A stretch of DNA of 64,000 bases from assembly GCA_030390025.1 (NCBI GenBank), contig CM059432.1:22694001-22758000 (forward strand). The letters run 5' to 3'. The notes under the pieces were generated by a model, which saw nothing but the letters and a program-made list of their open reading frames with translations, did not search any database and was not told the DNA's origin. Of this stretch, positions 2,691 to 58,629 are shown one piece after another. A program made the position numbers and the translations under genes. The stretch's first letter is position 1. Each line of letters opens with the position of its first letter. The DNA is from Squalus acanthias (Eukaryota).

Positions 2691-3547
2691 TGTTGATCAC
2701 CTGGGTGAGAAGTGAATGGAAGACATTTATGATGCTTGACATTAAATGAATCACCTTTATCACATTTGCCACTATGGTATGTAGTGTAGTTTCATACCAG
2801 CTTCGGAGTCTGCATTGTCAGAATGTCATTGATATAGAAGCTTTCAGAATGATTTAAACATTCTTCAATGCAGGATGAAGAGAATAGGGAGGAATGTCGT
2901 GCAGAGTTTCAGGACAGGGAATTGCTGAGCTATGAGCCGATCCCTGATACCTCTGGCTGCAAGGCGTTAAGGCGGCCCTGCGTCCTCTGCTGCTTCCTCT
3001 CCTTACCCCAGGTCTTCCTAGAACTATAAAATGGGCACTGTACAGCAGGCTGTTGAAGGAACCAAGCCTGCCCTGTAATCCCAAAAGTGTAATGTTACCC
3101 CTTTAATTGCACAAGGATTGAAGGTGCTTATTTTTGTACAACATGCTCAATGCAAACACGAAACCAAATATACTTACATGCATAAACCATAAAGGTATTT
3201 CCTACCAGTTGATTCCTACCTGATTAGTTATATACAGGAAACTTTTGTTTATCCGGCACCCAAATATCCGGAATTCTCGCTTAACCGGCAAAAATCATCC
3301 TCCGAAAACTCCTCTCAAATAACCGGCAATGTTGCCGAGTCGCAGTCGAGTCTCCGCGAATGGCGAGTGCTCCGAAAACTCCTCTCAAATAACCGGCAAT
3401 GTTGCTGATCCCGAGTCCGAGTCCGAGTCCGTGAACGCCGATTTAGTCAGTAGGGGTACTTTTCAAAAGTGTCACTACTCGGCCTCCTGGCGCTGTCGCA
3501 AGTCCGAAACATTGCAGTAGCATGAGTAGATTCTCCCGCGCTGCCTG

Positions 3548-4000
3548 GAGTCTCTTCTGATCGGCCATTTTGCTGGGTGTCATCCACGATGCTGGTAGTC
3601 TCTTCTGATCCACCATTTTGCTGTGTGTCTCCCATGCTGCTGGTACTGTAGTCTCTTCTGATACACCATTTTGCTGTGTGTCTCCCACGCTGCTGGTACT
3701 GTAGTCTCTTCTGATACACCATTTTACTGTGTGTCTGCCACGCTGCTGGTACTGTAGTCTCTTCTGATACACCATTTTGCTGTGTGTCTGCCACGCTGCT
3801 GGTACTGTAGTCTCTTCTGATACACCATTTTGCTGTGTGTCTGCCACGCTGCTGGTACTGTAGTCTCTTCTGATACACCATTTTGCTGTGTGTCTGCCAC
3901 GCTGCTGGTACTGTAGTCTCTTCTGATACACCATTTTGCTGTGTGTCTGCCACGCTGCTGGTAGTCTCTTCCTAGCCACCATTGTTCTGTGTGTCTTTCC
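3548..4000. repeat. 53-bp tandem repeat array inside the Tigger 5' region
   Basis: Unit gtagtctcttctgatacaccattttgctgtgtgtctgccacgctgctggtact starts at 3595, 3648, 3701, 3754, 3807, 3860 and 3913, with degenerate units at ~3548 and 3961. Confidence 0.97.
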
Positions 4001-4035
4001 ATCTTCATCGGCAATTATCTCCTCCATCTTGCATT

Positions 4036-5808
4036 ATGGAATTCCCAAAAGCTGGTCCAAGCAAAAGGAAGAGAGTGGTCTTAACTTTAAAACAGAAAAT
4101 CGAGATATGCCAACGACTAGAAAGGGGAGAGAAGCGTATCAACATTATGAATGAATTCAAAATCGGTTCGTCAACAATCTACGACATCAAATCGCAGAAG
4201 GATAAGCTGCTCAAGTTTTATTCAAGCTCGGAGACATGCAAGAGTGTAGAGAAACGGCGTACGCTTCGTAAGCCTAAGCTTGAAGAGCTGGATACCGTGC
4301 TTTATGAATGGTTTTCTCTTAAGCGTTCAGAGGGTGTTCCAATTTCCGGACCCATGCTAATCGAGAAAGCAAAGGATTTCTACGAAAGGATGGAGCTCAC
4401 TGACAAGTGTGCTTTCTCCGATGGATGGCTAACGTGCTTCAAGTTACGGCACGGGATACGACGACTCGATATTTCCGGGGAGAAGAAATCAGCTGATCAC
4501 GAAGCCGCAGAAGAATACTGCGATTATTTCAATCAGATTGTGCAGCAACATGATTTGTCGCCAGCACAGATCTACAATGCCGATGAAACTGGCTTGTTTT
4601 GGAGGTTTTTGCCAGAATCAACGCTTGCTGGGGCTAGTGAGGCTAATGCTACAGGTTACAAGAAAAATAAAGATCGTGTAACCGTGCTAACATGTGCGAA
4701 CGCCGCTGGATCACACCGGGATAAACTTCTTGTTATCGGGAAGTATAAAAATCCCCGTGCATTTAAAAATGTGAGGCACTTACCTGTTGAGTACAAAGCT
4801 CAAAAAAATGCTTGGATGGATAAGGAAATCTTCTCCGATTGGTTCCATCATATTTTTGTTCCATCTGTGAAGGAACATTTCCGCAGAATAGGGAAACCTG
4901 AAGATAGCAAATGCATTTTATTGCTTGATAATTGCAGAGCCCATCCGCATGAATCCCAGTTGGTTTCGGGAAATATTTTCACCATTTATTTGCCACCAAA
5001 TGTAACTTCTCTCATCCAACCCATGGACCAGGGCGTTATCCAAAATCTGAAGTGTCATTACAAGAAAGACTTCCTACGTAAACTGCTAAGCCAAGATGAG
5101 AATATTCAAGATTTGCAGAAGGAATACAATATTAAAGATGCCATCTATAATGTTGCATGTTCCTGGAAATTGGTGAAAGGTCACACTCTGAGGCAAGCCT
5201 GGCGCAAATTGTGGCCTTCTGTAATGTTTGCTGAAGGTTCTTCTTCAGAGGATGAATTTCATGGGTTCAGTGTTCGTCCGAAGAAGAGTACAATAATGGA
5301 AATGGCTGGAATGGTGAAAAATCCAGGCCCAGCAAACCCTCTACGTCACCTCAGTGAAAGTGATATCGAGCAGTGGGTTAATGCAGATAGAGAAGTTGGT
5401 GTTGTGCATATGCTAAGTGATGATGAAATAATTCAGAATGTTTTGAATCCAAAGAAAGAAAAGGAAAGCGAGATGGAAAGTGAAGAGGATGAGATTTCTG
5501 AAGAAGAGAAGATTTCTTGGGCTAAAGCTACAGAAGGATTTTCTACAATCCTCAAATTTGCTGAAAGGCAGACTTGCTACTCTGCACAAGAAGTTATGCA
5601 ACTCCATATTCTGCATTCCACCTTTCTACAGAAAAGGCAAGAGTCCACTAAGCAAACCGACATCCGCAACATGTTTAAGAAAGCTTCCAAAAGAGTCGCA
5701 GCAGCGGAAGTGCCTGAAGAATCTGTGGCATCGGTGGAACTGCGTGATCCTGATCACCCAGCTGGCACGGATACGGATATTTCTGATGAACCAGATGACT
5801 CGGAATAA
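4036..5808 (+). CDS. Tigger/pogo transposase, 590 aa, uninterrupted
   Basis: ATG at 4036 in ORF 3982-5808. N-terminal HTH and CENP-B-type DNA-binding region ([35 protein letters not shown]). Catalytic [10 protein letters not shown] / LLLDNCRAH / IQPMDQGVI with 32 residues between the 2nd and 3rd Asp. C-terminal QTDIRNMF. Confidence 0.95.
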
Positions 5809-6997
5809 GTGTACAGTCAACTACAGTACTGTAGACAGTCGTTTATAAGTTTTGTTTTACTGTTAAGTAATTAAAGAGTTATGGATTACCCTCAACTGGC
5901 AGTACTGTACTTAATCAAGCATCTTCCACTATCCATTTAACACAACATTCTGTAGGTGAGTACCCAAATACCGTATACTGCACATTTCTTGATTTTTTTA
6001 TGTTAAAAATAGCCTCGGTAGATATAACTCTCCGTTATCCGGTACTTTCGATAAACCGGCACCACGCCGATCCCGTCGATGCCGGATAAACAAAAGTTTC
6101 CCTGTATTTTGTATTCCGTTCCACCCAGCATCAGTTGAACTTATCATTACTTTTACAGGCAGGACAGAAGATTGTAATAGTTATGAAATAAAAATACCAG
6201 AAAATAAATCAGTTCAGAAATATGATGCTGTTTCAGTGGCCGGGGCCAATTTTCTTATGTCTCCACTGAGGATGGGGGGGAGCATGCTAGATCCAAGCCT
6301 GCTGGTTCTACATTGCTCCATTAAGGTACCAGTCCGAGACCAGTATCTGTGGTATAACAAGCCCCCTAGATTCTTTTAGAAGTAACAGTCCAGATGAAGA
6401 AAAATGATTTCAATGCAAATGCGCTATCTCATTTAGTTGAATGGATATTGATTAATCCTATAAAACTATCCATTCTTCACCTATGTAATTAAGGGAGAAG
6501 CAATGCAATTCTAAGCTCCCATTCAGAGTGTATAGACTCAAATTCTAGTCTCAACTATCAATCAAAGCCCATGACAAGTTCAGCGATTATTGCTAGACTG
6601 ATACATGAAGTTAGTAGCACTCTACCTTGGTGGGGGAGAAGAAAATGCGTTGTCAATTATTCTACCCCCAAAAATATTGATCCGTATAAAATAGCACTAG
6701 GCTTGGAGATGTCTCTGACCCAGAGGGTTGTACATTTAAGGATAAAAGGAAATCAGCATGGTAGCAGAAAGGCTGAAAGGAAAAGTTAGTGCAACAAGGA
6801 TGGTTTTCTGCAATAGCTTTCTTTCCTGGCAAACATTGGATTGAAAGTGCATGGACCTAAGCTCGCAAAGGGCATTAAGTGGTGCAGGAAAATAAGACAT
6901 TTAGTGATTACTGATGTAAGATTACTGTGCCTGTTGATTCCCAGATAAGATTTGCCATCGTTTATAAATATGGATGTTATGTTAGCTTGTTTCCAAT

Positions 6998-7937
6998 TGT
7001 GAGTCAGTCAGTAATGACCACTCAGAGTTCTTGGACAAGACACAAATAGGCAGCAGCCAGTATGTTTGAGCAATAGATCAGATTTATTAAGCTTACAGCG
7101 TAATCAATACTTAACATTAGGCGATAGTAACGAATAGCTCGCAGCCCTTGGTTTCTGGAGCCCTTTGGACACAGGCAACGTCGTCACAGGTCTGTTCCTT
7201 ATCTTCGCAGCAAATTTCTGTGTGAAACTGTTCTTTAAATATCGAGGTTTTAACCCATTCCTTATCAACAGTTCAGTTGGCCAGTGTCCATATATGGTCT
7301 TTAACAAAATCACCTTTTTTAATTGGTTCTAATGATCAAAATACCATTGTCACTCAGGTTAAGGCTAGTAACCTGGCCACTTCTTTTCCAGTATATTTCC
7401 ATTAACTCTGTTCTGCTGTCATGTTATCTTGTTTATAGCTTTTCACCCCATTGGAATTTACTTTATCTCTTTCATTTCTAGCTTCAAGCAGCACAAGGCC
7501 TTTCTCTACACCAAGGGCCCAGATCATTTCAGCGCTGTTTCACTAGTCTTGATGTATGCAGACTATCTCACTTTAATCTACCAGATAAATACCTTAACTT
7601 CCATGATCTCTCTCATTTATTGGAATTTATACTAATTATCCTTTAAATATTGTTGCAATTAGTTTTGTTAAGTGGATTCTAAGTTCTAACAGCATTATAA
7701 TATGTTTTTCTTAGCAATTTAATGATTTGACCTTCACTTGCAGTCTGTGGCTGTTTGTTAACAAAGCTTAGTCAAAACTGCTTTTGAACTGTCTGCAGCT
7801 ACATGTTGAACAAGTCTTAGCTTTCTAGTTACCCAGGAGTAATTATGGGTAATATTATTTGGTCAATGGCTACACTTAAAGCTATACATATATGATTCTC
7901 ATCTACTAAATATCTTTAAATATCAGCTTTTCGTACA
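6998..7937 (-). mobile_element. Solo LTR (ERV or Gypsy type), ~940 bp
   Basis: TG...CA termini with a perfect 4-bp TSD CAAT (6994-97 / 7938-41). On the minus strand a TATTTAAA (~7234-41) precedes AATAAA (~7083-88). Confidence 0.7.
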
Positions 7938-8607
7938 CAATCCTGTGCCACCTCACCAGTTCGGGCATGAAATTGGCAAAGCAGCTGTGCCACCCGACTA
8001 AAGCCACCATTGGGAGATCCGAACCATTGTCAAGCTTGGGCCTCATTTGAATGCAGTTGATGAGCAGTGGGCACAAAATGGGAGCTCTGCTGCAGCTTAC
8101 TGGCTCAGGGAGTGGGAGGGGGGAGGGTGGTAATGGAGGAGCTGGTCGGCAGGTAGGGCTTTACGAATGGCTGATCTCGGAGTGGGGGGGGGGTGGGGAG
8201 TCAGCATGGCCCGGCAGCGGGCCATAGTATTTTTGGGAAGCCAGCAGGAGCATTTTTCCTGGCTCGACAAAAATAAAAAGACAAAGATATATTTGGGGCC
8301 CTTTTGTAGAGCGTCCACCAGCAGTCTCGTCAAGGACCACTGGTTCGACCACTCACGCCTGGTAAAAATGGGCAGAGAGTGTGTGGCGCACGCTCATTCA
8401 TTTGTAATTCGAAATAGCAACCAGGGTCTTTAGCCAGCATATGATCCCAATTTGCAAATTTAAAGAACCACCCACCTGAAATAAGCAGACCTGCCATGCA
8501 AGTCCACCTGAAAAAGGGGTGGCCGAGGTTACCCCTTCCCCACCACCCTGATTTTTCTCTGCCAACTGCCCATTTTTCAAGGCAGGCAGCAATTAAAAAT
8601 CCACCTT

Positions 8608-8650
8608 CAGGGTTCTGAAGAAGGGTCATCGACCTGAAACGTTAACTCTG
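8608..8650 (+). ncRNA. Minimal type I hammerhead ribozyme motif
   Basis: Stem I CAGGGUU/AACUCUG (7 bp incl. one GU), core CUGAAGA, stem II GGGUC-AUC-GACCU, GAAA, palindromic ACGU in place of stem III, predicted cleavage after GUU (8643). Confidence 0.7.
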
Positions 8651-8712
8651 TTTCTCTCTCCACAGATGCTGCCCGACCTGCTGAGTATTTCCAGCATTTT
8701 CTGTTTTTATTA
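8608..8712 (+). mobile_element. Penelope-like element terminal fragment
   Basis: Same sequence (gacctgaaacgttaactctgtttctctctccacagatgctgc..tttccagcattttctg) as the terminus attached to the GIY-YIG fragment at 38262-38906. Confidence 0.85.
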
Positions 8713-19810: not shown

Positions 19811-20546
19811 ATTCGGTTAGGTACAGAACTGCCCACAATTTGGCTTGAATCTGCCACTGTCAATGACAAAGATTATAGAAATTACTTGAATGAAAAATGG
19901 AGAGAAAAGACTGGTCTACAGGAGTGTGTATCTGAAGTTAAGCTTAAGGTACATTTGTTGTGAAAGAGTATTCGGAGCTTTATTCTGGATGTGGACCATG
20001 GTATACCTGACCCAGGAGTGCTTAATACTGACACTGGATGCAAAGAGTAGAAAAATGTTGCAATCCCAGCACAGACACCCCTCACCTTAATAAGAACCAA
20101 ATGCATAAATATATCTCACTGACTTTACATAGACACTTGTAGTATAAATCCAAATCAATTCACACCTGCTCTTGTGCTCCATTTATTTACTTCTTGTTGT
20201 CTCACATGCAGACATCATCATTCAGGTGAAATCTGGAAGCACTCTGAAAACTCCTTCATCAACAATATAGTCTGTCCCACTGATTTTATCGAACAGAAGG
20301 CAGATTTTCCAGGTGATAAGTTAAAGAATGAGGCTATTCATAATCTCTGCCACTCATACTTGTTATGTGTTTTGTTTATGGCAACATAGAATTTTGGAGG
20401 TTTTTATGACTTATAATTTGGGGCGTGGGTTCTGTAGCTGGTTAGAATGCTATTCTTTGACTTCTCGGATCGAGATTAAATTGCAGCCCAGACTGACGGG
20501 ACTAAAGTCTCCTTACGCTGCACATACGTCAGTAAGTAGTCTCAAT

Positions 20547-21257
20547 GGCCCGAAAATTAAACCTAATACGCGAGAGTACGCACTGTGTACTCTCACGTAT
20601 TAGATACCGAATTGCCGGTTTCCTGCATGCACTGCGCATGCGCGGGAAACCGGCACTTCGTGAATTGCAAAGGGGGCGGTTCCTAAGTGAACCGCGTGCG
20701 TGCTACAGGCTGTGCGCACGCAGTGCACTTAGTTTTTTTTTCAGCTTTGAACGCGCAGGTAAGTGGTGAAGATTTTACACATAAAGAAAGCAGGCGTAGG
20801 ACCCCCTTTTAACAAGGTAAGTAGTTAATTAAGTGTTATTTTAAATTTTTTTCAACAGGTTTGTCATTTTTAGAGACTTTAAAGAAAGGTAAATTTATTT
20901 TTATAATTTTTAAAAAGATTTTAAATTTTTTCAAAAATTTAATTTTTTGTTTAAAGTGGTTAATTTATTTAACTATACTTATTTTATTAATGTGATGGCT
21001 TTTTAAAAAAATTTAATTGAGGTTTAGCTGTTCTTTTGGGGGTTTGTAGCTGCCATTGGCTCTAACTGAATCACGTGATCCCAGAGCTCGCACGAACTAA
21101 TTGCGCCTCTGGGATACGTACACACTGCACGGTTGCAACAAGAAGAGGCTCTGAAACTAAAGTTTGTGTGGGCCCCAAACAAAAAGGTAGGCACGGAGTG
21201 CGATATCGCGGGGAATCCTTACCCCCGCGGGAATCATCCATGTTTAATTTCTGGGCC
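20547..21257 (+). mobile_element. Harbinger-type MITE (GGCC termini, AT-rich core)
   Basis: ggcccgaaaatt...aatttctgggcc, flanked by AAT/ATT. Highly similar copy at 47409-48168. Confidence 0.8.
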
Positions 21258-22236
21258 ATTATATTTCCTATTCAGCACGGGCCCACAGAACAAAGCTGAC
21301 TACAGATTCCTGCAGATTGACACTAACCTCACAATCTCAGTTGGAGAGGTAATAATGACGGCTTGAGGAGAAACCAGGAAAATTTATATCGGGCCATTGA
21401 AAGTCTGTTGACTGTGGGAGAAAGGGAGGACTGAGGGGGGGGGCGGGTAAGGAGATATTAGGGGGGCTGACCAAAAACTTGGTTGAATAGCCTTGCCTAA
21501 AAAAGCCAATTGGAAGACCAAGAATACATTCAGACTATATTGTTTTTCGACAAGAAGTAATCAATATGAAGCCATTAGGATAGGAAGAAAAGAAAAGGAG
21601 CTTAATCAAAATACCAACAGAAGAAAGAATTGAAGTGCCACTGAGGCCTTAACAGGTAGCTTTTGATTCATGAGTGATTTTCGTTTGTCTTGCACATTAT
21701 TGATTTAGCAGCACCACTGTTTGCTAAACTGTTTGGTGATAACATGCTTCTGACCTACTTTATTCCTAAGAGGCTAAAGCTACTTATCAGCCTGTCACTT
21801 TGTGAGTACCAATAGATTACACTATTTTAGGCCCAATTCACAATGGAATCATTTGCCTCAACTTGTAACTGCGATGCCAGTCTGGCTACAAGGCTACACA
21901 GAATTTCTACCCTATTTTAGTCCCCTGCCAATAACTAACTATAGTTTCAGGATATTTGTAAATCAGTAAATAATGCTAAGGCAGTAATACATGAATCTAA
22001 AAAAATGGCTTTACAGCCAAACAAAGAAACAAAAAGGTAATATTTGCATTTACGCAGAGCCTTGCCATGTTATGGAGACATTTCACTCGTTGCAGTACTT
22101 ATTTTGTCATGTTATGTAGGCAAACACAGTAGACATTCTGCACAAACAGCAATGAGACAAATAACCAGTTAATTTGCACATTCCATAAACTTAAGCTTAT
22201 CCACAACTCTGCTGCCTGTATCCTAACTCGAAACAA

Positions 22237-31927: not shown

Positions 31928-32060
31928 GACAAAAGCAAACTACTGCGGATGCTGGAAATCTGAAATAAAAACAGAAAATGCTGGAAATACTCAGCAGGCC
32001 AGGCAGCATCTGTGGAGAGAGAAACAGAGTTAACGTTTCAGGTCGATGACCTTTCTTCAA
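31928..32060 (-). mobile_element. Penelope terminal fragment with damaged hammerhead core
   Basis: Reverse complement reads ttgaagaaaggtcatcgacctgaaacgttaactctg... Confidence 0.8.
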
Positions 32061-32067
32061 AATAATT

Positions 32068-32759: not shown

Positions 32760-33172
32760 CAGGAAACTTTCGTTTATCCGGCACCCAAATATCCGGAATT
32801 CTCGCTTAACCGGCAAAAATCATCCTCCGAAAACTCCTCTCAAATAACCGGCAATGTTGCCGAGTCGCAGTCGAGTCTCCGCGAATGCCGAGTGCTCCGA
32901 AAAATCCTCTCAAATAACCGGCAATGTTGCCGATCCCGAGTCCGAGTCCGAGAACGCCGATTTAGTCAGTAGGGGTACTTTTCAAAAGTGCCACTACTCG
33001 GCCTCCTGGCGCAAGTCCGAAACATTGCAGTAGCAGGAGTAGATTCTCCTGTGCTGCTTGGAGTCTCTTTGTTAAAAATAGACTCGGTAGATATAACTCT
33101 CTGTTATCCGGTACTTTCGATAAACCGGCACCACGCCGGTCCCGTCGATGCCGGATAAACAAAAGTTTCCTG
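32760..33172 (+). mobile_element. Non-autonomous 413-bp deletion derivative (MITE) of the Tigger at 3235-6104
   Basis: TA at 32758-59 and 33173-74. Same TIRs. Left part matches 3235-3556, right part matches 6001-6104. Confidence 0.97.
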
Positions 33173-36650: not shown

Positions 36651-38261
36651 AGTCATTGACCTGAAACGTTGGGGGGAATTTTTCGGGGGGTCAGCAGGCA
36701 CGTTTGGTGCCCACTGACGGGTAGTGAACCCGCTGTCAACCCACCTCCACGCTTGTCTCCCAGATGTTGGGTCTGTCATCGCTGAACAGATCCAACATCA
36801 GGCGGCAGGGGAGGCAATTTAGATCATTAGAGGCAATTAAACAGTATTTTAAGCTTAGCTTTAGATTTTTAGAGTTCGCCAACGGTTTCCACGGTAAGGA
36901 GGTCGGGTGTTGGGTCAGCGTGTGATGATTTCTTTACTTGACAGCTGCAAATGGTCTATAAAAGCATCCATTTCATAGCTGTTCACTTTCCAAGGTTAGA
37001 AGCTGTTGCTTACTGCATTTGGAAGACAGATTGAGCTTTATGCAGGTTGCAAGTATTTGGAGCAAACTCTCTATCCAGTGTCAACCCATTGGAACAACCT
37101 CTCTCACCATTGACAGATCGCTTCTGTCATCTCAACCTCACCTGCCATCTATTACATCAGCATCGGTGCCCTTAAAAAAATCTCACCTTGGTCCTCAGAA
37201 TCCAACCACGATCAGCCCCAACACGAGCAGCACCAGGCACACCAGCAGCACCAACAACAACACCAACCTTCTCCGCAATCAGCTAGTGTTGCACAGGACA
37301 CAGGGCATCAGCACCCGACCACATTGCTGCCTGGGACGTCAGGGATGGCCTCACCATAGCCAGATTTACTTCACTTGATGCTGTCAAATCATGCACACTT
37401 GCCTTTCCCAATGTCGGGTCTCCCAGTGCTGAGCAGACCTGACCGGCAGTGGCGAGGACCTAATTTAAACAATTATTGGCTTGTTGACAAACCCTTGAGA
37501 GTGAATTTAACCTTACCTTTTGACATTAAGAGCTCACCCACACCTTCCACGCTGCTCCTGGACCCCGTCTGTTAATCTGAGGCGGAAGTTGAGTGGCCAT
37601 TGAATCAGCTGATGAGTGACAGCTTGAAATGTAATATAAAAACTCCCACTTCACACCTGTTCACTTTCCAAGCACAGAGGCTGTTGCTTTCTCCCTTTAG
37701 AACACAAATTGAGCTTTATGCAGGCTACAAGTATTTGGAGCAAACTCTCCAGCCAGTGTCACCTCGTTGGAACAACGTCTCTCGCCATTGACAGATTGCT
37801 TCTGTCATCTCAAGCTCACCTGCCATCTATGACATCAGAATGGGTACAGTTTATACTGTCTCACCTTGGTCCTCAGAATCCCATCACGATCAGCCCCAAC
37901 ACCAGCACCCGACCACATTGCTGCCCAGGAGGCCAGGGATGGCTCACCTTGGCTAGATTTACTTCACTTGACACTGCACACCCTGACTGCCACATAATGC
38001 GCAAGGCTAGCACCACCCCACACCAACACCATAAAGCATCCCTACAATGCCCAAGCCATTCCTTTCACACTCATCACCAATGTGGGGGGTACTGTTATGT
38101 ATCACCATTCACTGCAACTCACTAAGCCACTTCCAAAGGTGCACACAAATCTGTCCAAGAACGCAAAGTGTTGAAAATAAAGATTTCAATACTTGACAGC
38201 ACATTAACAGAAACTTCACATGAACATTGGCTAAAGTACCCGAGTGCCTACCCTTATGTAT

Positions 38262-38906
38262 TAACAACAGAAAACGCTGGAAAAACTCAGCAGGCCAGGC
38301 AGCATCCATGGAGAGAGAAACAGAGTTAACGTTTCAGGTCGAAGACCTTTCATCAGAACTGGAAAAAAGCAGGAAATGAAATAGATTTAAAGTAAGTATA
38401 ATGCTTGGAAAAGGGGGAGGGGATGAAAGAACAAAATGGAAGGTCAGTGGTAGGATAGAAGGCAGGAGAGATTAAGAGACATTGAGAGACATTAAGAGAT
38501 AATCAAGGCAAGAGGAGGTGGTAATGTGACAGGTTGAGGCTAGATGAAGTGTGAAATGCGCTGGCAGAATGAAGGACAGCTGCCAGCTTCTGGGAAGGAA
38601 GAAAAAAAGGCCAAACAAAAGGGTGGATGAAAAAATAAAATAAAAATACAAATATATATGTGATAGGGGCCGGGGTTATGATCTGAAATTGTTGAACTCT
38701 ATATTGAGTCCAGAGGGCTGTAGGGTGCCTAAACAAAAGATGAGGTGCTTTTCCTCGAGCTTACGCTGAGCTTCCCTGGAACAATGCAAGAGGCCGAGGA
38801 CGGTGAGGTCAGAGTGGGAGTAGAGTGGAGAATTAAAGTGACAGGCCACCGGGAGCCCGGGGTCCCCCTTACAGACTGAATGGAGGTGTTCCGCAAAGCG
38901 GAACCC
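38262..38906 (-). mobile_element. Penelope-like element 3' part (GIY-YIG endonuclease C-terminus + terminal repeat)
   Basis: Minus strand ~38906-38678 reads RFAEHLHSVCKGDPGLPVACHFNSP..RKLEEKHLIFCLGTLQPSGLNIEF, typical of Penelope GIY-YIG C-termini. Confidence 0.85.
38321..38362 (-). ncRNA. Minimal type I hammerhead ribozyme motif
   Basis: Minus strand CCAGUU CUGAUGA A AGGUC UUC GACCU GAAAC GUU AACUCUG: canonical core, 5-bp stem II, 4-bp stem I. Confidence 0.7.
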
Positions 38907-39636: not shown

Positions 39637-39742
39637 GTTAACTCTGTTTCTCTCTCCACAGATGCTGCCTGATCTGCTGAGTATTTCCAGCATTTTCTGT
39701 TTCTACTTCAGATTTCCAGCATCCGCAGTATTTTGCTTTTGT
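39637..39742 (+). mobile_element. Penelope terminal fragment (5' part at 36652-36670)
   Basis: gtcattgacctgaaacgtt | gttaactctgtttctctc reconstitutes the terminus once the Harbinger is removed. Confidence 0.8.
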
Positions 39743-40269
39743 ACCAGTTGTGAAGTGCTCATTTTCACTTTCTACGTGCAGTACTTTGCACTAGTCTGTG
39801 TTAAATTGATCATGCCGCCTAGTTCACCTTGTTAAAAGCTCTGAAATGTTTTCCTTCAGGGCATATTTTACAATCGCATGCTGCCAAAGTGGAAGTGCAT
39901 ATTCGGCCTTCATTTGTGCAGTTACCTATGATTTTAATCAATGGAAAATCAAGTTGGGGGGAGGCGGTGCGTGGGAGGCATGTTTATAAATTCCCCTTAA
40001 TGCACTCTTGATGAACAAGGTGCCATGATAGGATTGTGTATTTTTAGAATTTACCACTTTATGTAAGGAGCACTATAGAAAATAAGATTGTTGTTTTCCA
40101 GCAGTCATGTATTCGTAAAAAATGTCTTTTAAAAAAAGCACTGATTAAGTACAGTCCTGAATAAATAAGCACAACTGTCGCATTTTATATGCATTAATCC
40201 ACGTTGAAGTAGCTACCTCGCAGTCTGTTACACTAGTATTCAATCATAAACCACCCATTAAGTATCAAT

Positions 40270-46597: not shown

Positions 46598-47408
46598 GGA
46601 CAGGACACTAAAAGAACACCCTGGTCTTTGAAAAATGCCATGGGATCTGTAAAATTGGCACATGCAACTGTATAGAAGTCTCTCAGTCCTGCACTGGAGT
46701 ATTAGCAGGATAAATTGGACCCATTGTACATGTTTTTCGGATGCAGAATGGGGTCAAAAAGCACCAATTTCATGGTGCTGTCTCCCTTGCCCCAAGGGCG
46801 CCGGAAATACGACCACAAATTGGATCGGATGATTTTTTGAGCACCCCTAGTGGCTGCCTAAAACAGGCATTAGGCTTCTTGCATATTTAAATTGATCTAT
46901 CGCTGATTTCAGGTAGTCACTTAGTACGCCTAGAAGCAGTGAGGACCAATATATTTTTTGTACAAATGGGATTTAATATGCCACCACGCAGATTAGATGC
47001 AAGACCTTGTGCACAGAAATTGTTTTCAATTGGTATTGTGCCCGTTTCTACACCCAAAAGCCTGGCAAAACAAATACTCATTTCATTCTCCAAATAACTT
47101 CTGCTGAAAGTGGCCCATACCAAGTGCCAGGGTGCCAGATCAGGCCCACCTGAAAATTGAGTTTGACACCTCTGCTATAGATAGTGGAGAGAGGCATTTA
47201 GGGGTCAGGAGGTGATCCAGTCATCACAAATTACTCAGCCTCTGACCAGTGAACTCTTGTAGCCACATTGTTCATATGGCTGGTCCAGTAAAACTTCTCG
47301 TCTAGCTTCTAATGGTGACCCCCATGATGTCAATGGCCATTGAAGGTCAGGGGTGGTGGTTGGCTATTTGGAGATTTCATTGCCAGCCACTTATGTAGCA
47401 TAAATAAT

Positions 47409-48168
47409 GGCCCAAAAATTCGGCTGAATACGGGAGAGTACGAACTGTGTACTCTCGTGTATTCGGTCCCGAAGTGCCAGTTTCCTGCATGCACTGCGCA
47501 TGCGCGGGAAACCGGCACTTCCGGTATGGCGAAGGGGCGGTTCCTAAGTGAACCGCGTGCGCACTACAGGCTGTGCGCACGCAGCACACTTAGGTTTTTT
47601 TTCAGGTTTCAACGCGAAGGTAAGTATGGAATATTTTACACATGAAGAAAGGAGGCGTAAGACCCCCTTTTAACAAGGTAAGTAGTTAATTAAGTATTTT
47701 AATTTTTTTTCAACAGGTTTATCTTTTTTAGAGACTTTAAAGAAAGGTAAGTTTATTTTTATAACTTTTAGAAAGAATTTAAATTTTTTCAAAAATTTTA
47801 ATTTTTGTTTAAAGTGGTTAATTTATTTAACTATACTTATTTAATTAATGTGATGGGGTTTTTTTAAATTTATTTGAGGTTTAGCTGTTCTTTTGGGGGC
47901 AATTTATATTCATAGTTTTGACAGTTCTCCTGTCAAATCTATGAATGAAAGATAGTGTGCTGCCATTGGCTCTCCATGGCCCACGTGATCCGAGAGGTCG
48001 CATCGAACTAACTGCGCCTCTGGGACACGCACACATTGCGCGCCGGCACCAGGGAGAGGCCCGGGACCAGAAGTTCCTGTGGGCCCAAAACACAACGGCC
48101 GGCGCGGAGTGCGATATCGCGCAAGATCCTTACCCCCGCGGCAAGCCTCCGAGTCAAATTTCTAGGCC
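47409..48168 (+). mobile_element. Harbinger-type MITE (family of 20547-21257)
   Basis: ggcccaaaaatt...aatttctaggcc, flanked by AAT/ATT; inserted in a minus-strand LINE fragment (~47170-48190). Confidence 0.8.
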
Positions 48169-49159
48169 ATTACCTACCACTTGTCAGTTCAAGACTGGAT
48201 GTTCGGGACCTGCTTTATTATTGAAAGAGTCGCAAATGGAGCTGATTACTAAAGAGTCATCAGTGAACTTCTGACCTTACAATGGATGGAATATCTGTCC
48301 CAACCTCAGGATAGCATTCCAATTGCCTCAGTACGATGTTTATATTTTCCACCTCAGCTGTTTTTATGAGTTAGGACTAGGAAGTGAGCCGAGACTGTCT
48401 CATCCCTCTGTGAAATCAGATTAGACATTCCTCCCAGCAGTCTCTCAAAGCTGATAAAGACTTGACCTACTGTGCTAAGCAAACCCAAGGGTGTATTTTT
48501 AGAAGGAAAAAATACATTGGTAGCCACTGTGGGGAGGGGGATGTGCTGAACCTGCAGTATACTTTAATAAACAGGAACATATTGAGTTATCCTATTAAAG
48601 ATGCCACTCAGCTTCTAAAATAGCTTTTAAAAACATTTTGATAATGTAACAACGCTAGGAATCATGATCATGAATTTTTGATCTTACATTATCTACTGTC
48701 AGCTCAGCAGGAGTTGATTATATGCCCTCAGCCAGATTGCAGTTTAAAAATTGACAAGAGTCCGATCTAGCGAGCGGAACCGCACAATCACATTGCAAAG
48801 ATAATGTCACTTCATCAATCTGATACATCTGAATTATGCAGCGACGGGCTGAATCTGAGTTGAGGGGGAGTGGGGGAAATCTATATTTGCCAAGCAAATT
48901 GACTTCCATTATATTGAGCAGATTTTGAGTTATGCTTTGCAGACCTCTGCGCCTTGCCCATTCAGTAAATTAAAGCGCAATGATGAAGCAAAAGCTTAGT
49001 GCTATTGCATTACTGGGGGCTTAACACAGGCATTTCTCAGATCATCTGGAAAAAAGTGATTAAAGTATAAATCTATTTTGATGCAAAGCTGCAAGTTACT
49101 GTGGCATGAGCCATCATGTGCTCAGATCAGTGTAAAATATATGCAGCTTGGGGAGGGAA

Positions 49160-50340
49160 AAGAAAAAAGAATTTGCATTTATATAGCGCTTTTCTTGACC
49201 TCAGGACGTCCCAAGGTGCTTTACATCCAATAAAATATTTTTGAAGTGTAATCACTGTTGTAATGTTGGAAGCACGGCAGCCAATTTACACACTGAGGCC
49301 CCACAAACAGCAATGTGATAATGGCCCGTATTTTCCGATGCTTACGGGTGTGTACAAGGTGTGTACACACCCGTAGGGACATCGGAAATGCCGGTTTCAG
49401 GCATGCGAAGCGCATGCGCTGAAAACCGGCATTTCCGATCTGTCAAGAATCCTCTTGACAGATCGCACGCCTGCCCTGGAGAAGGGCCTCTGTGGGTGGA
49501 GAGTTCCGCTTTCTGCAGAACCTCCACCCGCTGAAATCACTTAGAAATCTTACGCATAAGAGTTTTAAAAAGTTTTTAAAAATTATTTTTTTTCACTCAT
49601 TTATAATTTTAAAATATTTTTTAAAAAGGTAAGTTTATTTTTAGCCCCGTAAAAAACTTTAATTTTTTTTTTCAAAAAATTAAATTTTTGTTTAAAATAT
49701 TAAATTTAATGTAATTTTAACTCATTTTAAAAATGTGATGGTTTTTTAAAAATTTATTTAATGTTTTGATGTGTTTCTGGGGTGATCTCCATTCATACTT
49801 TTGACAGGTCTATCTGTCAAAAATATGAAGGGAGATTCCCTTCGCCTATTGGCTCACCTGGCCCACGTGATCCCAGGGACGCTTGCGAACTGCATGCGCC
49901 CCTGGGATACGTGGGCCCTGCGCATTTCGACTGTGGAGAGACCCAGGATCGGAAGTGTCTGGACCTCGGGAGCCCTCAGGTAAGAACATAGATTTTTTTC
50001 CGATAGGAGGCATCCGCACGCAGGAAGCCTCCTGTCGGAAATTGCGGGCCAATGACTAGGTAATATGTTTTTTTAGTGATGCTGATTGAGGGATAAATAC
50101 TGGCAAGGACACAAGGAGAGCTCCCCTGCTTGTCTTCGAAATAGTGCCATGGGGTCTTTAGCGTCCACCTGAGAGAGCAGACGGGGCCTCGATTTAACAT
50201 CTCATCCGAAAGATAGTGCAGCACTCCCTCGGTACTGCACTGAAGTATCAACCTGGGTTTTGTGCTCAGGTCTCTGGAGTGGAACCCACAACCTTCTGAC
50301 GCAGAGGCGAAATTGCAACCACTGAGCTACAGCTAACACC
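49160..50340 (-). mobile_element. Deu-domain SINE split by a MITE
   Basis: SINE tail at 49160-49322 and body/head at 50051-50340. Confidence 0.85.
49323..50050 (+). mobile_element. Harbinger-type MITE (related subfamily)
   Basis: ggcccgtatttt...aaattgcgggcc; perfect TSD AAT confirmed by restored SINE sequence. Confidence 0.85.
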
Positions 50341-50754: not shown

Positions 50755-51672
50755 GGTTGAGTTTGCTTGTGAAATTAGGTGGCACAGTAAGTAGTGTAGT
50801 GGGAACAGAAAGTTGCAATGGGACATTGATAGATTAAGTGAGTGGGCAAAACTGTGGCAGATGGAGTTCAATATGGGGAAGTGTGAGGTCATCCACTTTG
50901 AACCGAAGAAAGATATATCCGAGTGTTTTCTAAATGGTAAGAAGCTAGGAACTGTGGCGGAGCAGAGAGATTTAGGGGTCCAAGTACAGAATCACTAAAA
51001 GCTGGTGGACAGGTACAAAAGTAATTAAAAAGGCTCAAGGGAGCTGGAATCCAAAAGGGTGGAAGTTATGCTACAGTTGTATAAAGCTTTGGTTAGACCC
51101 CATCTGGAAAACTGTGTTCAGTTCTGGGCACCGCTCCTCAGAAAGGATATATTGGCCTTGGAGGGGATGCAGCACAGATTAACCAGAATGATACCTGGGC
51201 TAAAAGGTTAAATTATGAGGACAGGTTTGTATTCCCTTGAGTATAGAAGATTAAGGGGTGATCTAACCTGAGGTGTTTAAGATGATTAAAGGATTTGAAA
51301 GAGTAGATAGAGAGAAACTATTTCCTCTGTTGGGGGAGTCCAGACCAAGGGGGCTTAACCGTAATATTAGAGCTGGGCCGGTCAGCGGTGATGTCAGGAA
51401 GCACTTCTTCACATAAAGGATTGCGAAAATCTGGAACTCTCTCTTTCAAAAAAGCTGTTGAGGCTAGGTCAATTAAAAAATTAAAAACTGAGATAGATAC
51501 ATTTTTACAACAGCAAAATACTGCGGATGCTGGAAATCTGAAATAAAAACAGAAAATGCTGGAAATACTCAGCAGGTCAGGCAGCATCTGTAGAGAGAGA
51601 GAGAGTTAACGTTTCAGGTCGATGACCCTTCGTCAGATAACTTTTTGTTAGGTAAGGGTATTAAGGGATATG
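50755..51672 (+). mobile_element. Decayed CR1 ORF2 3' part, with a Penelope insert
   Basis: DIDRLSEWAKLWQMEFNMGKCEVIHF, VRPHLE.CVQFW, KGIKGYG (continues after 59146). Confidence 0.85.
51507..51648 (-). mobile_element. Penelope terminal fragment with hammerhead core (CUGACGA)
   Basis: Minus strand tctgacgaagggtcatcgacctgaaacgttaactctc... Confidence 0.8.
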
Positions 51673-52026: not shown

Positions 52027-53959
52027 ATGATGGCAAGTCCACACCCTAGGGAGAGAGCCCGCAGATTCTCAGGCCAAGCATTGGAGGAGTTGGTGTCCAC
52101 TGTGGAGAGACGGAGGACGGAGAGTCCTGTACCCGGCAAGTGGCAGGAGGCCCTTGCTGCAAGTCTTCCGCGCTATGTGGAGGGAGGTTGCCCATCATGT
52201 CTCGGGTAGGACTATGGTCCCCAGGACCCACACACAGTGGAGGAAGAAGTTTAACAACCTCACTCGGGTGGTCAGGGTGAGTCAATGCCTCAATAAATAC
52301 TACATACCACCATCTGAACCACAGGCTGCACACACTGGCCAAAGCACCACATCCCCAGCACTCACCCACCAACAATCTCTACCGACCAATACTCACACCC
52401 ATATCTCACACCTTGCACACAATGACAGCTATTCAACTATGGCAAGCACATCATCCAAACACATTGCTCCACACTCACTTAAACACTTTTCTTTCTCTTG
52501 CAGGTCAAGATGGCTCACAACAGGAGGGACCAGGAGCACACAGGCGGGGGACAAGCTGGCACCCAACCACTGTCGGAGCTGGAAAACAGAGTGTTGGACA
52601 TTATTGGACACCAGGTGGTGGGCGCCGTGGCCACCGGCAACATCGACTCTCTTGGGGACAACAACGGTATGTTCATCCCTACTCCTTCTTCTCACATCCC
52701 ACTTCCCCCTCACCCCACAAACCTTTCGCACCTTCCAGCTAATCTTGCTGTATGCATGCTTTTCTCCCTTCCTGTCCCCCTGCCCTCACCTTAACCCGAC
52801 CCCTGTGCCTTTATGCTTTCAGATAATGATCAAGCACCTGAGCAGCCTGTCCCTGAGGGCACCATAGAGAGTGAGGCGGGAGAAGAGGAGGAGGAACACA
52901 CCACGTCACTGCATCTTTCACCCGCAGGCACCAGCTCAGATACTGGCACTATGTGTTTTTTAGAGGCTTGTATCGTAGCGGGATCTGCATAGGGTGATGT
53001 ACCGGGAACGAGCGGGCTACAGCAAGGCCAGGGAGAAAGGGTAGCTCGGGGGCCAGCTCCTTCGAGGTCGAGTTCGCGCGTGAGTTTTGCTGCACAGACT
53101 CAGATGAGGACCTCAATGGGAGGCCTTTAGAAGAAGGGTGATGGGCGTGCACACGGAGATGATAGGTGCAATGACAAGGGTGCCCGAAGCCTGTCGGCAA
53201 TGATAAGGAGCGTGGAGGAGTCCACCTCCAACATTGCACAAAACTTTGCGCACACCATGGAGCCCATCATTTCCAGTCTGCAAAGGGATGGTAGACTCCC
53301 AGAGAGACCGTGGCAACCCAAACTTTATGCCACGTGTGATGGGTGATCTGGCAGCTTCCATTGCAGCTGTAATGTAGTCTACAGTTGGTGCCATTCAATC
53401 TCAGACTGCTCTCAAGCAGTCTCAGCTTGATGCCACACAAGCTTTGACTGCTGCCATCATGGCTGGGTCATTGTGAGGTGTGGTCTTTTCCCCACAACAG
53501 GGCAGTAACAGCCTCTCTTCGGAGTCGACTGTCAACCAGGGCTTTCACAGTGTCGCAGCAGGCCACCAATCTGTGCTCCAGCAGATTAGTAGTGATGCTG
53601 AGGTGCTGCCCTGGGGGAGTGGCATTGGGTCAGTGGAGCAGGAACCTGCTGTCCTCTCTCAGGATGACAGCATTCCTGCTCCCACCACTGGCACTCCGCC
53701 ATTGCCCTTGTCGCTGTCTGTCATCCAGCCATCCTAGACTGCTGCCGCCCATGCTGAGGTGGTGCAGTCTACAGCCAGGCCTTTCAGGCGCAGAACTGGT
53801 CGAGGGCGTCCTGCAAGGCCAACTGAAGTCTCCCGCACAGACACTCAGCAGCCTTCCACCAGCCGTGTTGCAGCCATTGGGCCAACACTTCGTAGGAGCA
53901 CTAGAGTAGGCATAGGCACAGTAACAAAAGGCACTAAGGGATCGCACAAGGGTGAATAG
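52027..53959 (+). pseudogene. Harbinger Myb/SANT-like DNA-binding protein (NAIF1/MSANTD-like), 3 exons, disrupted
   Basis: RERARRFSGQALEELV..WREVAHHV..RTHTQWRKKFNNL. GT-AG introns 52277-52503 and 52667-52822 join VR|VKMAHNRRDQEHTGGG and an acidic exon 3 in frame. Frameshift in exon 1, stops in exon 3. Confidence 0.85.
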
Positions 53960-54124: not shown

Positions 54125-57100
54125 TCATTGGAACCGCAGTCTGATGAGGCGGTCACGGACCGCCCTTTCGGAAGACTAATTGAGTGGCTGCCTCCTCCCT
54201 CGCTCCTGTTCCTCCTCCTCATCATCCTCATCTTCCTTTTCCTCCTCTTCATCCTGGAGCGAGAGCAGCAGCGCTATAAAGAGCATGAGAGGAAGTGGAG
54301 GCAGCAGACCTGGGTGAGACCAGAGCGGGAGCAGAGCGAAAGAGGCAGCGGCTCAACAGAGGCAGAATCCGAAAGAGTGACGTCAGAGTAGAAAAGGTGA
54401 CGTCGGCACAAGGGAAGGAGCTGATTGGTGAGTAGCTGGTGAGTGTTTTTTTTTAAGTTTTAAGTTTATTTCTGCTTAGTTAGTTCTTAGTCTATTAAAT
54501 AAAAGGCATGGCAGGGCAGTTCAGTCCCGTGGAGTGCACATCCTGTGCCACGTGGGATGTCCTGGATGCTTCGCGTAGCCTGGACGACCACATGTGCAGG
54601 AAGTGTCACCAGCTACGGCAGCTGGAGATCCGTGTTTCAGAGCTTGAGCGGCAGCTGGAGTCACTGCGGTGCATCCGCGAGGCTGAGAGTTACGTGGATA
54701 GCACGTTTCTGGAGGTGGTCACCCCGCAGCTTAAGAGTATGCAGGCAGAGAGGCAATGGGTGGCCGCCAGACAGAAGAGGAGGACCAGGCAGGTAGTGCA
54801 GGAGTCCCCGGAGTGCATCTCGCTCTCCAACCAGTATTCTGTTCTGAAAACTGGTGGGGGCGATGGTTCCACCGGGGAGTGCAGCCAGAGACCAGTCCAA
54901 GGCACCACTGGTGGCTCAGCTGCACAGGAGGGGGAAGAAGAAGAGTGGAAGAGCAAAAGTGGTTGGGGATTCGATAGTTAGGGGAGCAGACAGGCATTTC
55001 TGCGGCCGCAGACGTGACTCCAGGATGGTATGTTGCCTCCCTGGTGCCAGGGTCAAGGATGTCACTGAGTGGCTGCAGGACACTCTGAGGGGGGAGGGTG
55101 AACAGCCAGAGGTCGTTGTCCATATCGGTACAAATGACACAGGCAGAAAGAAGGATGAGGTCCTGCAGACAGAGTTTAGGGAGCTAGGAGAGAGATTAAA
55201 AAGCAGGGCCTCAAAGGTAGTAATCTTCGGATTACTCCCAGTGCCACGTGCTAGTGAGTACAGGAATAGCAGGATAGAACAGATGAATGCGTGGCTGGAG
55301 AGATGGTGCACGAGGGAGGGCTTTAGATTCCTGAGGCATTGGGACCGTTTCTGGGGAAGGTGGAACCTGTACAAGCCGAAGGGTTACACCTCAACAGAGC
55401 AGGGACCAATATTCTCGTGGGGAGGTTTGCTAGTGCTGTTGGGGAGGGTTTAAACTAGCTTGGCAGGGGGATGGGCATCAGCATATAGGAGTAGAAAAGA
55501 GAAATAAGGTGCATGAAAGAGTGAGTGTGTTGGATAGTACTAGAGAAGAAAGTAGTACTAGAGCCGGAAGTAGTACCATATTAGATAGTTACAGACTAAG
55601 AAAGACTACGAAAAATTCAAAAATGGGCTTGGAATGCATGTACGTAAACGCACAAAGTGGGGTGAATAAGGTTGGTGAGCTACAAGCACAATTAGCCATG
55701 TGGCAATATGATGTTGTGGCAATAACGGAAACGTGGCTTAAAAACGTTGAGGACTGGGCACTTAATATTCAAGGGTACAAGGTGTTCAGAAAAGATAGGG
55801 AAGGAAAAAAGGGAGGTGGGGTGGCAGTGCTGATTAAGGAAGACATTGTAATGTTGGAAAGGGAGGATGTTCTTGAGGGGACAAGGACAGAATCCATTTG
55901 ATTAGAGTTGAGGAGCAAAAAGGGTTTGATCACGCTATTGGGGGTATTCTATAGGCCTCCAAATAGTAAGAGGGAGGTAGAGGAGAAAATCTGCACGGAA
56001 ATTGCAGAGATATGCAAGAGCTATAGAGTGGTGATATTGGGGGACTTTAATTACCCAAATATCGATTGGGATAATGCTAGGCTAAAGAGAAAGGAGTGAG
56101 AGGAATTTCTGAAATGTGTTCAGGAGAATTTCCTTGACCAGTATGTTCTTGGCCCAACTAGAAAGGAGGCAACGCTGGATCTGGTGCTGGGGAATGAGGT
56201 GGGCCAGCTTGACCAAGTGTCCGTGGGAGAACACTTGGGTGCGAATGATCATCGTATCATAAGATTTAGATTAGCAATGGAGAGGAGCAAGGAACAATCT
56301 GGAGTGGAACTTCTAAACTGGAATAAGGCTAACTTCAATGGGATGCGAAAGGATCTAGCCAGGGTAAAATGGAACCAAAGACTGACAGGAAAAACTGTAG
56401 GAACAATGGGTGATCTTTAAGAAGGAGATGTTCCAAGTACAGGCTAGGTACATTCCAACAAGAGGGAAGGGTAAGGAAAGCAAAGCGAGGGAGATAGAGA
56501 AGATGATGAATCAAAAAAAGAGGGTGCATGATGCATGACAGGTGAATTCTTCAAGGGAGAACCAGACCAAATACAACAAGTTGAGAGGGGAAGTGAAGAT
56601 GAAAATAAGACTGGCAAAGAGAGAATATGAGAGTAGAATGGCGGTTAACATAAAAGGGAACCCAAAAATCTTCTACTGGCATGTAAACGGTAAGCGGGTA
56701 GTAAGAGGCGGGGTGGGGCCTATTAGCGACAAAGAAGGTTTTATATGCTTAGAGGCGCAGGGCAAGGCTAGAATACTCAATGGAACTTTGTATCAGTGTT
56801 TACTAAGGAGGTGGATGCTGACAAAATATCGGTAGCAGTGGAAAAGGTAGAAGCAATGGAAGGGATGAAAATTGATCGACAGGATGTACGAGAAAGGCTG
56901 GGTACGCTTAGAGTGGATAAGTCACCTGGTCCAGATGGCTTGCATCCCAGGTTGCTAAGGGAATTGGGGGAGGAGATAGCGGAAGGGCTTGCCATAATTT
57001 TCCAATCTTCCCTAGATGCGGGGGAGGTGCCTGAGGATTGGGAAGTGGCAAATGTGACTCCATTGTTCAAGAAAGGGTGTAAGGACAATCCTAGTAACTA

Positions 57101-58629
57101 CAGGCCGGTCAGTTTATCATCAGTGGTGGGTAAAGTTTTAGAAACAACAATCAAGGAAAAAATTAATGGGCACTTGGAGAGGTTTCAGCTAATTAAGGAG
57201 AGCCAACACAGATTTGTAAAAGGCAGATCATGTTTGACTAATCTAATTGAATTTTTTGATGCAGTAACAGGGAGGATCGATGAAGGGAATGTAATGGATG
57301 TTGTCTACATGGATTTTAGGAGGGTGTACCACATAGAAGGCTGGTTAACAAAATTGAGGCTCATGGAATAGCTGGATCAGTGGCAGCTTGGATAAGGAAT
57401 CGGCTTAAGAACAGAAAACAGCGAGTTGTGGTAAATGGCTGTTTTTCAGACTGGAGGATGCTACCAGTGGTGTTCCCCAAGGGTCGGTGCTGGGGCCGCT
57501 GCTATTTTTGATATATATAAATGACCTGGATATTGGAATACAGAGTAGAATTTCTAAATTTGCTGATGAAACCAAATTCCTCCTCTCCCTTTTCCTCCTC
57601 CTGAGGTGGTCCTGCAATCCCTGGTGGCAATGGCTGAGCCCTCATGGCCAAATTGTGCAGCGTGCAGCAGACGACAACAAAATGGGACACCCACTCAGCC
57701 TAGTACTGGAGGGCTCCTCCCGCGTGGTCAAGGCAACGGATCAATTGCTTGAGCACCCTGGTGGTCTGCTTGATGATGTTCCTGGTGGCGGCATGGCTCT
57801 CATTATATGATTGCTAGACAGGAGGGTTGGGGTTGCGGAGGGGAGTCATGAGCCAGGTGGAGAGCGGATAGCCCTTGTTTCTGACCAGCCAGCCGCGAAC
57901 TTCATGTGGTGGCTGGAAGAGTGCTGGCACAGCGGTCTGGCACAGGATGAAGGCATCATGGCTGCTGCCAGGATAGCGGGCATTCACATTGAGGATTCAC
58001 TGTCTGTGGTCGCACACCAACTGGACATTAAGTGAGTGGTAGCCTTTGAGGTTATGGATCTCAGGATTGTTACGGAGTGCCCGCAAAACCACATGGGTGC
58101 AGTCAATGGCGCCCTGCACCATGGGGAATCCCGCTATCCTGGCAAAGCCACATGCACGCTCATCCTGCTTCTCTCTGGTGATGGGGAAGGAAATGTAGTC
58201 CCTTCTCCATCTGTAGAGAGCCACTGTGATCTCCCGGATGCAACGATGAATGGCGAACTTTGAGATGTTAGCTACATCTCCTGTTGCAGACTGGAAGGAT
58301 CTGCTGATGAAGAAATTGAGGGTGACGGTGACCTTGACTGCCACAGAGAGCCGTGGGCGCCCTAATCTGAGGCTGGAGGTCTGATTGCAGGAGGTGGAAG
58401 AGTTCTGTCACCACCTCCTTGCTGAAGCGGGGCCTTCTAATACACTGCTCCTCCTTTAATTGGAGGTAGGAGAAGTGCTGTCGAATACCCTCGGAGCGTA
58501 AGGCCTCCTGTTGAGAGCTCTGGTGGCCCTCCTCCTCCCTCTGGCCACATGTTCCAATCTTTTTCGCTGCCTCCGCTCCCTCTGCCATAGATCCTGGAGG
58601 GCGAGGTCGACTGTCAGTACAGCCCCCAT
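54125..58629 (-). pseudogene. HARBI1-like DDE transposase, frameshifted and split by CR1 (pieces 58629-57578 and 54255-54125)
   Basis: [55 protein letters not shown], acidic tail, IRLRFQ*. Confidence 0.9.
54256..57577 (+). mobile_element. CR1 LINE with 5' UTR, ORF1 (Zn finger/coiled coil + SGNH esterase) and ORF2 cut at the RT FADD motif
   Basis: ORF1 from ATG 54508: CTSC..CRKC, leucine heptads, GDSIVR, PGARVKD, HIGTND. ORF2: YVNAQS, AITETWL, YRPPN, GDFNYP, KSPGPDG, ends at KFADETK. Confidence 0.93.

Follow-up and report, generated by a model that had tools for sequence, protein, structure and literature searches.

The window analyzed here, a 64,000-nucleotide (nt) stretch of Squalus acanthias contig CM059432.1, contains a DNA transposon of the Tigger type that measures 2,870 bp (3235 to 6104) and carries TA on both sides (Table 1). 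A first-pass annotation of the window had described this element as an intact, young Tigger in a sea of decayed repeats, and much of its anatomy was confirmed. Both TA target-site duplications (TSDs) are present, and the single 590-codon open reading frame (ORF) is uninterrupted and encodes a DD32D catalytic triad (D183/D298/D331). The terminal inverted repeats (TIRs), said to be near-perfect over 24 bp, match perfectly over 22 nt (3237 to 3258 against 6080 to 6101) and the left one is indeed 24 nt long, but the right one has an extra C (run 6100 to 6102), which separates the inner TIR from the terminal TG and lies at the cleavage end. Consistently with the many retained CpGs reported, the CpG observed/expected ratio is 0.76 in the element versus 0.42 in the window; the 2-kb bin 4001 to 6000 has the highest ratio (0.72) among 32 bins, with three further bins at 0.65 to 0.67. 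As far as tested, the other elements of the window are broken, as had been stated: the next-longest stop-to-stop frame is a 414-amino-acid (aa) reverse transcriptase (RT) fragment.

With a TA TSD, TIRs of 24 and 25 nt, one three-domain ORF, and a DD32D spacing within the DD29-36D range, the element at 3235 to 6104 is a true full-length Tigger (pogo superfamily) transposon. Tigger TIRs range from 8 to 33 bp (PMC9219625). The ORF contains the Pfam domains CENP-B_N (residues 10 to 61), HTH_Tnp_Tc5 (83 to 143), and DDE_1 (212 to 389), and a structure model based on 146 sequences, with a mean predicted local distance difference test (pLDDT) score of 88.8, has CENP-B and Mos1 as its closest structures. 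The 9-nt motif WAWCCGGHA, which matches the inner TIR, is present in five copies at the left end and three at the right but is absent from the ORF, and all eight copies are kept in a short derivative described below; these copies are probably transposase binding sites. Because the motif was taken from the element itself, the fact that 16 of its 22 matches in the window fall in the element and this derivative is not an independent enrichment test. Neither these subterminal repeats nor the tandem array upstream of the ORF had been noted in the annotation.

Table 1. Coordinates of the Tigger element and its derivative in the window
Feature	Positions	Strand	Remarks
Left TA TSD	3233..3234	.	
Left TIR, 24 nt	3235..3258	+	
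WAWCCGGHA motif, five left-end copies	3250..3398	+	At 3250, 3265, 3282, 3320, and 3390; matches inner TIR
53-bp tandem array, 8 copies	3545..3963	+	94% matches; 5' untranslated region
Transposase ORF, 590 aa	4036..5808	+	Pfam domains, DD32D
Codon 229	4720..4722	+	Asp; Val in the four runs compared
6-nt in-frame duplication close to ORF end	5767..5772	+	Missing in contigs from the four runs compared
ATTAAA, candidate polyadenylation signal	5870..5875	+	Consensus match only
WAWCCGGHA motif, two right-hand subterminal copies	6036..6061	+	At 6036 and 6053
Right TIR, 25 nt	6080..6104	-	One extra C, 6100-6102; private allele or assembly error
Right TA TSD	6105..6106	.	
413-bp MITE (miniature inverted-repeat transposable element)	32760..33172	+	Fusion of element positions 1-322 with the last ~103 nt; TA TSDs; all 8 motif copies

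The 413-bp MITE that the annotation had mentioned was found in the window, flanked by TA. It has 24-nt TIRs (the left with one substitution) and a canonical right end without the extra C, and differs from the full element by ~3% substitutions. Close relatives are present well beyond the window: 18 of the 24 public sequencing runs listed, which come from 9 studies and carry eight organism labels (one run is unlabelled), contain 0.46 to 0.73 of the ORF words. Four of these runs (X1, X2, X7, and X10) were compared with the window over positions 3997 to 8496, 55% of run X2, which represents organism B, having been read. In X2, the unique flank has a depth of 17.4, while the 12 ORF bins range from 16,700 to 63,000, or 960- to 3,600-fold more (median, ~2,200-fold), and the 3' end bins reach 8,100- to 9,700-fold over the unique flank. 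Runs X2 and X7 also contain the junction of the window's MITE (at 6001); a second junction, at 5857, was seen in all four runs and a third, at 5827, in two of them, and by eye the loose letters at both look like the left end of the element.

The high X2 depth and the recurring MITE junctions establish a multi-copy family with several MITE families, which most likely reached roughly 1,000 long copies or more in a shark lineage. They also eliminate, together with the TIRs and TSDs, a single domesticated TIGD/JRK gene, in agreement with the annotation.

The copy in the window is close to these relatives and yet bears changes of its own. Contigs covering the ORF differ from it at 14 of 1,851 letters (X1), 20 of 1,764 (X7), and 33 of 1,853 (X10), or 0.8 to 1.8%. 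Among the variants listed, at least 10 ORF sites set the window apart from all four runs, 7 of them non-synonymous (R167Q, S206T, V229D, E406D, A430P, D449N, and D574H) and 3 synonymous; the contig totals permit at most about two further private sites in the ORF. The ratio of non-synonymous to synonymous rates (dN/dS) among the private changes is ~0.65, and neutral evolution is not rejected (p=0.46). A frame would stay open after 10 to 12 random substitutions with a chance of 0.61 to 0.55, so the open frame at this divergence can be explained by luck.

One of the private changes is V229D. Of 160 homologues, 159 have a hydrophobic residue at this position and none has Asp, which is likewise absent from the 145 sequences of a second, overlapping alignment. 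In the structure model, the residue lies in the hairpin between strands 214 to 222 and 232 to 235 of the catalytic core, and V229D probably damages the transposase. In X2, 99.8% of the depth at this codon specifies Val, and the residual 27.5, about single-copy level, differs; such a remainder fits organism B sharing the D229 allele, in which case V229D would be real. One X2 contig, also with a depth of 27.5, adds Y237D at position 4744, possibly the same locus decaying further in organism B.

The insertion itself appears to be shared. One X2 contig extends from 6083, within the TIR, to 7025, with 920 nt of flank, and differs from the window by 7 substitutions and one gap; the insertion site thus seems to be occupied in this second data set as well. 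This contig begins at 6083 and not at ~6072, where the extra base would have placed its start, which indicates that organism B probably has the canonical right end, and the extra C in the window may be an assembly error. No empty insertion site was seen in the four runs, of which X1, X7, and X10 have no cover over the unique right flank.

Taken together, these data describe a full-length copy of a once-amplified shark Tigger family whose private changes amount to ~0.6%, show no sign of selection, and include the probably damaging V229D, a reading to which we assign a probability of about 0.72. The copy is most likely dead or dying, its frame open by luck. Several points weigh against this reading. 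Ten mutations give little power, and purifying selection remains compatible with them; the X2 junction contig includes just 22 nt of the TIR, short of the 31-letter bar set for bridging; the depth ratio is an order of magnitude and not a copy number, since 55% of X2 was read and overlapping contigs inflate the sums; and the depth ratios derive from organism B, possibly another species than the window's.

According to the annotation, the window copy would be intact and perhaps still mobile. An autonomous, mobile copy would agree with the open ORF, the intact DD32D triad, the presence of both TSDs, and the eight copies of the motif; in addition, the X2 junction contig suggests that the extra C may be an assembly error. 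Given V229D, A430P, and the five other private changes, a frame that chance alone could have kept open, and a site apparently filled in the second data set as well, we consider such a copy very unlikely, and this part of the proposal was not upheld. What the data do support is an expansion of the family that is recent in sequence terms (0.8 to 1.8% from contigs of three other runs). The suggestion of a transposase tool suits the majority sequence of the family and not the copy in the window.

By analogy with established pogo and Tc1/mariner biology, from which the following steps are inferred, the two N-terminal helix-turn-helix (HTH) domains of the transposase would bind the inner TIR motif and the subterminal repeats, for which the pogo-like Lemi1 and its MITE offer a precedent (PMC1636448). 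The DD32D core would then cut the element ends and insert the element at TA, and MITEs, keeping every copy of the motif, would be moved in trans by the transposase of the family. The window copy would have gathered its ~0.6% private change at its present site, including V229D, with loss of function.

At 0.56 to 0.68% from its relatives, the window copy is young for a repeat. The mutation rate of the epaulette shark, 7e-10 per site per generation (confidence interval, 1.4-14.1e-10; PMC10587355), converts this distance to ~8 to 10 million generations (range, ~4 to 49 million), and youth in sequence does not imply present mobility. It is nevertheless possible, if on the doubtful side, that transposition of the family continues in this shark by means of other copies that are intact and polymorphic, the window copy being compromised. 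Of the 2,549 X2 contigs, 709 match the window stretch at 99% identity or more, and the X2 majority variants are near-fixed and conservative (D/E, K/R, L/I, and S/N), as for a selected master lineage; four runs from two organisms contain 0.46 to 0.52 of the ORF words and a fifth 0.49, although none is recorded as RNA and that kind is only a guess. Against continuing transposition, neither a polymorphic insertion nor a pair of identical copies was seen in the data compared, several organisms share the MITE junctions, so that the burst may predate their split, and even 0.6% amounts to those 8 to 10 million generations.

The closest proteins among the matches listed come from coelacanth (71% identity), turtle (66%), alligator (64%), and carpet sharks (64 to 65% over the full length), and all are named "jerky homolog" or unnamed. 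Two trees were built from hand-picked sets of 56 and 24 proteins out of ~166, with no pogoR or Passer reference included. In both, the window element is sister to a protein of the whale shark and bamboo shark (support 1.00 and 96), while the nearest relatives of mammalian JRK are turtle Tiggers (0.99 and 99) and a second coelacanth family (0.98 and 96). The window element groups with JRK, which is Tigger derived (PMC7386202), and with proteins whose lengths match those of the reptile elements Alsi_1 and Pesi_2. On these trees it is placed as a cousin of the source of JRK and not as its closest living relative. No order of events or donor was inferred, because the deep nodes of the IQ-TREE phylogeny are weak (23 to 68).

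These relationships bear on whether the window element is a JRK-like gene that the host has domesticated, or is on the way to becoming one. The sister position of the Rhincodon/Chiloscyllium protein and the name "jerky protein homolog" carried by the top matches would fit such a gene. Complete TIRs and TSDs, the very high relative depth, the MITEs, and the neutral-looking private changes do not, and the branch of the window element is short (0.13) next to the stem of the carpet-shark pair (0.30). Furthermore, the top-matching coelacanth "jerky homologs" are 15 copies on several scaffolds with a mean identity of 95.6%. Host-gene status for the window element is thus extremely improbable. The 15 coelacanth proteins, by their number, dispersal, and identity, form a repeat family, although the coelacanth "jerky protein homolog" has been filed as a JRK pseudogene (PMC7386202). 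The results also suggest that, outside mammals, many of the proteins named "jerky homolog" come from copies of transposons and not from genes.

Two observations concern JRK-like proteins elsewhere. A protein of 581 to 587 aa is >90% conserved across the skates and rays Leucoraja, Amblyraja, Rhinoraja, and Mobula (P0049 and P0151 to P0158) and is a candidate for a further domestication. In Pelodiscus and Geotrypetes, a KRAB domain (Pfam PF01352) is fused to JRK-like transposases (P0011 and P0067).

Among described elements, the reptile Tiggers Alsi_1, Almi_2, and Pesi_2 resemble the window element in their TA TSD, their TIRs of 23 to 27 nt, and the same inner 10 nt (PMC9219625). The left TIR of the window element is identical at 18 of 24 positions, including all of the last 10, to the TIRs published for Alsi_1 and Pesi_2, and these two elements encode proteins of 597 and 586 aa (PMC9219625, Table S1); alligator and Pelodiscus proteins of those lengths are 63 to 64% identical to the window transposase. 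The reptile elements have 4 to 29 copies, at most one of them intact, whereas the shark family is far commoner and has several MITEs. The TIRs in three shark rows of the same table (Caca, Scto, and Chpu) differ from those of the window element.

The coelacanth family (XP_064419100.1 and 14 more) is the best match at the protein level, with 70 to 74% identity, a DD32D triad, and pairwise identities of 92 to 99%, but neither tree places it in a specific group with the window element. The sister protein of the carpet sharks (XP_048474049.1 and GCC36032.1) also has DD32D and 64 to 65% identity, but differs in its cluster sizes of 2 and 1 and its long stem branch. Mammalian JRK shares the domain set, with DD32D/E and 50 to 59% identity to the window transposase; in mouse JRK, 34 of 52 and 42 of 61 residues of the two HTH domains match. 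Unlike the multi-copy window family, JRK is a single host gene. It is reported to bind the TIRs of human Tigger15a, its probable source (PMC13538051; see also PMC11601254 and PMC11601247 on JRK and Tigger15a).

That near-identical sequence occurs in eight organisms raises the question of horizontal spread, and this observation does not separate transfer from descent. The small contig distances given above (X1, X7, and X10) would be expected after transfer, which is reported to be common among Tiggers (PMC9219625). In addition, the window copy is nearer to the contigs of organism A than to the type that prevails in organism B, though B shares its flank. The majority type of organisms B and F shares conservative changes, e.g., Q308E and L351I, that are absent from the window copy, and the greater nearness to A than to the B/F majority implies that subfamilies exist. 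On the other hand, sharks evolve slowly, and 1 to 2% can span related species; X1 and X10 contain pieces of the unrelated repeat at 7021 to 7937 at 86 to 95% identity, fitting related hosts; and low-coverage or mixed samples would yield the same pattern. The missing cover of the unique right flank in X1, X7, and X10 was given no weight in favour of transfer, since a region without cover carries no evidence.

Searches in other taxa point in the same direction, in that no near-identical protein was found in any named taxon among the matches listed. None exceeded 73% identity among the best 120 of 1,251 full-length matches or 67% among the best 120 of 410 short matches, none of the 150 listed representatives was near-identical, and the exact protein is absent from the protein collection. 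Viral contigs yielded neither a relative nor a TIR match, and prokaryote genomes yielded no TIR match. In metagenomes, the best protein identity was 52% among the 80 loci kept of 385, and no close DNA match was found. Horizontal spread of the family among the eight organisms is accordingly judged improbable. The metagenome loci L007, L010, L011, L013, and L028 contain complete Tigger-like elements of their own, with TIRs ending in a similar TTATCCG and ~40% protein identity.

The kind of element is well known, and an active pogo-type tool exists in Passer, a native fish element of a different family (DD35D) that is active in human cells (PMC9976928). No published entry for this family was found in the literature or in the TIR text of the supplements of PMC7386202 and PMC9219625, as far as these sources were available; Repbase and Dfam were not covered and may list it. 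Vertebrate Tiggers are reported to be mostly of low activity, no genome having more than about eight copies that are intact (PMC9219625, section 3.2), so a shark family with about a thousand long copies at 1 to 2% divergence would rank among the better sources of a working Tigger transposase. The family also belongs to the group from which JRK, a gene that has been linked to mouse seizures and is overexpressed in cancers (PMC7386202), was domesticated. It is tempting, if quite speculative, to imagine a shark lineage with a still-active, thousand-copy Tigger family of the JRK group, whose majority transposase works in vertebrate cells and recognizes the very inner-TIR motif to which JRK still binds in Tigger15a. 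Such a family would supply a working Tigger transposase for the first time, together with a living counterpart of two independent domestications (mammalian JRK and the candidate carpet-shark gene), perhaps with horizontal spread among the carriers of near-identical sequence.

Other repeats in the window are of several kinds, and its richness in CR1 elements has an elasmobranch look. Three related GC-rich repeats (20544 to 21261, 47406 to 48172, and 49300 to 49911) are 73 to 80% alike, with internal inverted motifs and, by eye, Harbinger-like ends, and are probably non-autonomous DNA transposons. A broken Harbinger-type transposase lies on the minus strand at 61868 to 62623, with a weak DDE_Tnp_4 match below the curated cut-off, and an ORF on the plus strand at 52031 to 52867 resembles a Myb/SANT-type helper fragment and has no Pfam match. 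A CR1-type element on the plus strand (54499 to 55453 and 56772 to 57810) has a GDSL/SGNH-esterase ORF1 fragment (Lipase_GDSL_2, E value of 1.5e-12) ahead of a broken RT. The repeat at 7021 to 7937, pieces of which are also present in X1 and X10, is an older, high-copy sequence ~10% from X2 contigs. Finally, a short repeat is present in five copies with 88 to 96% identity (8613 to 8711, 31929 to 32062, 38258 to 38359, 39637 to 39743, and 51506 to 51637), which we take to resemble a common elasmobranch short interspersed nuclear element (SINE) or the tail of a long one (LINE).

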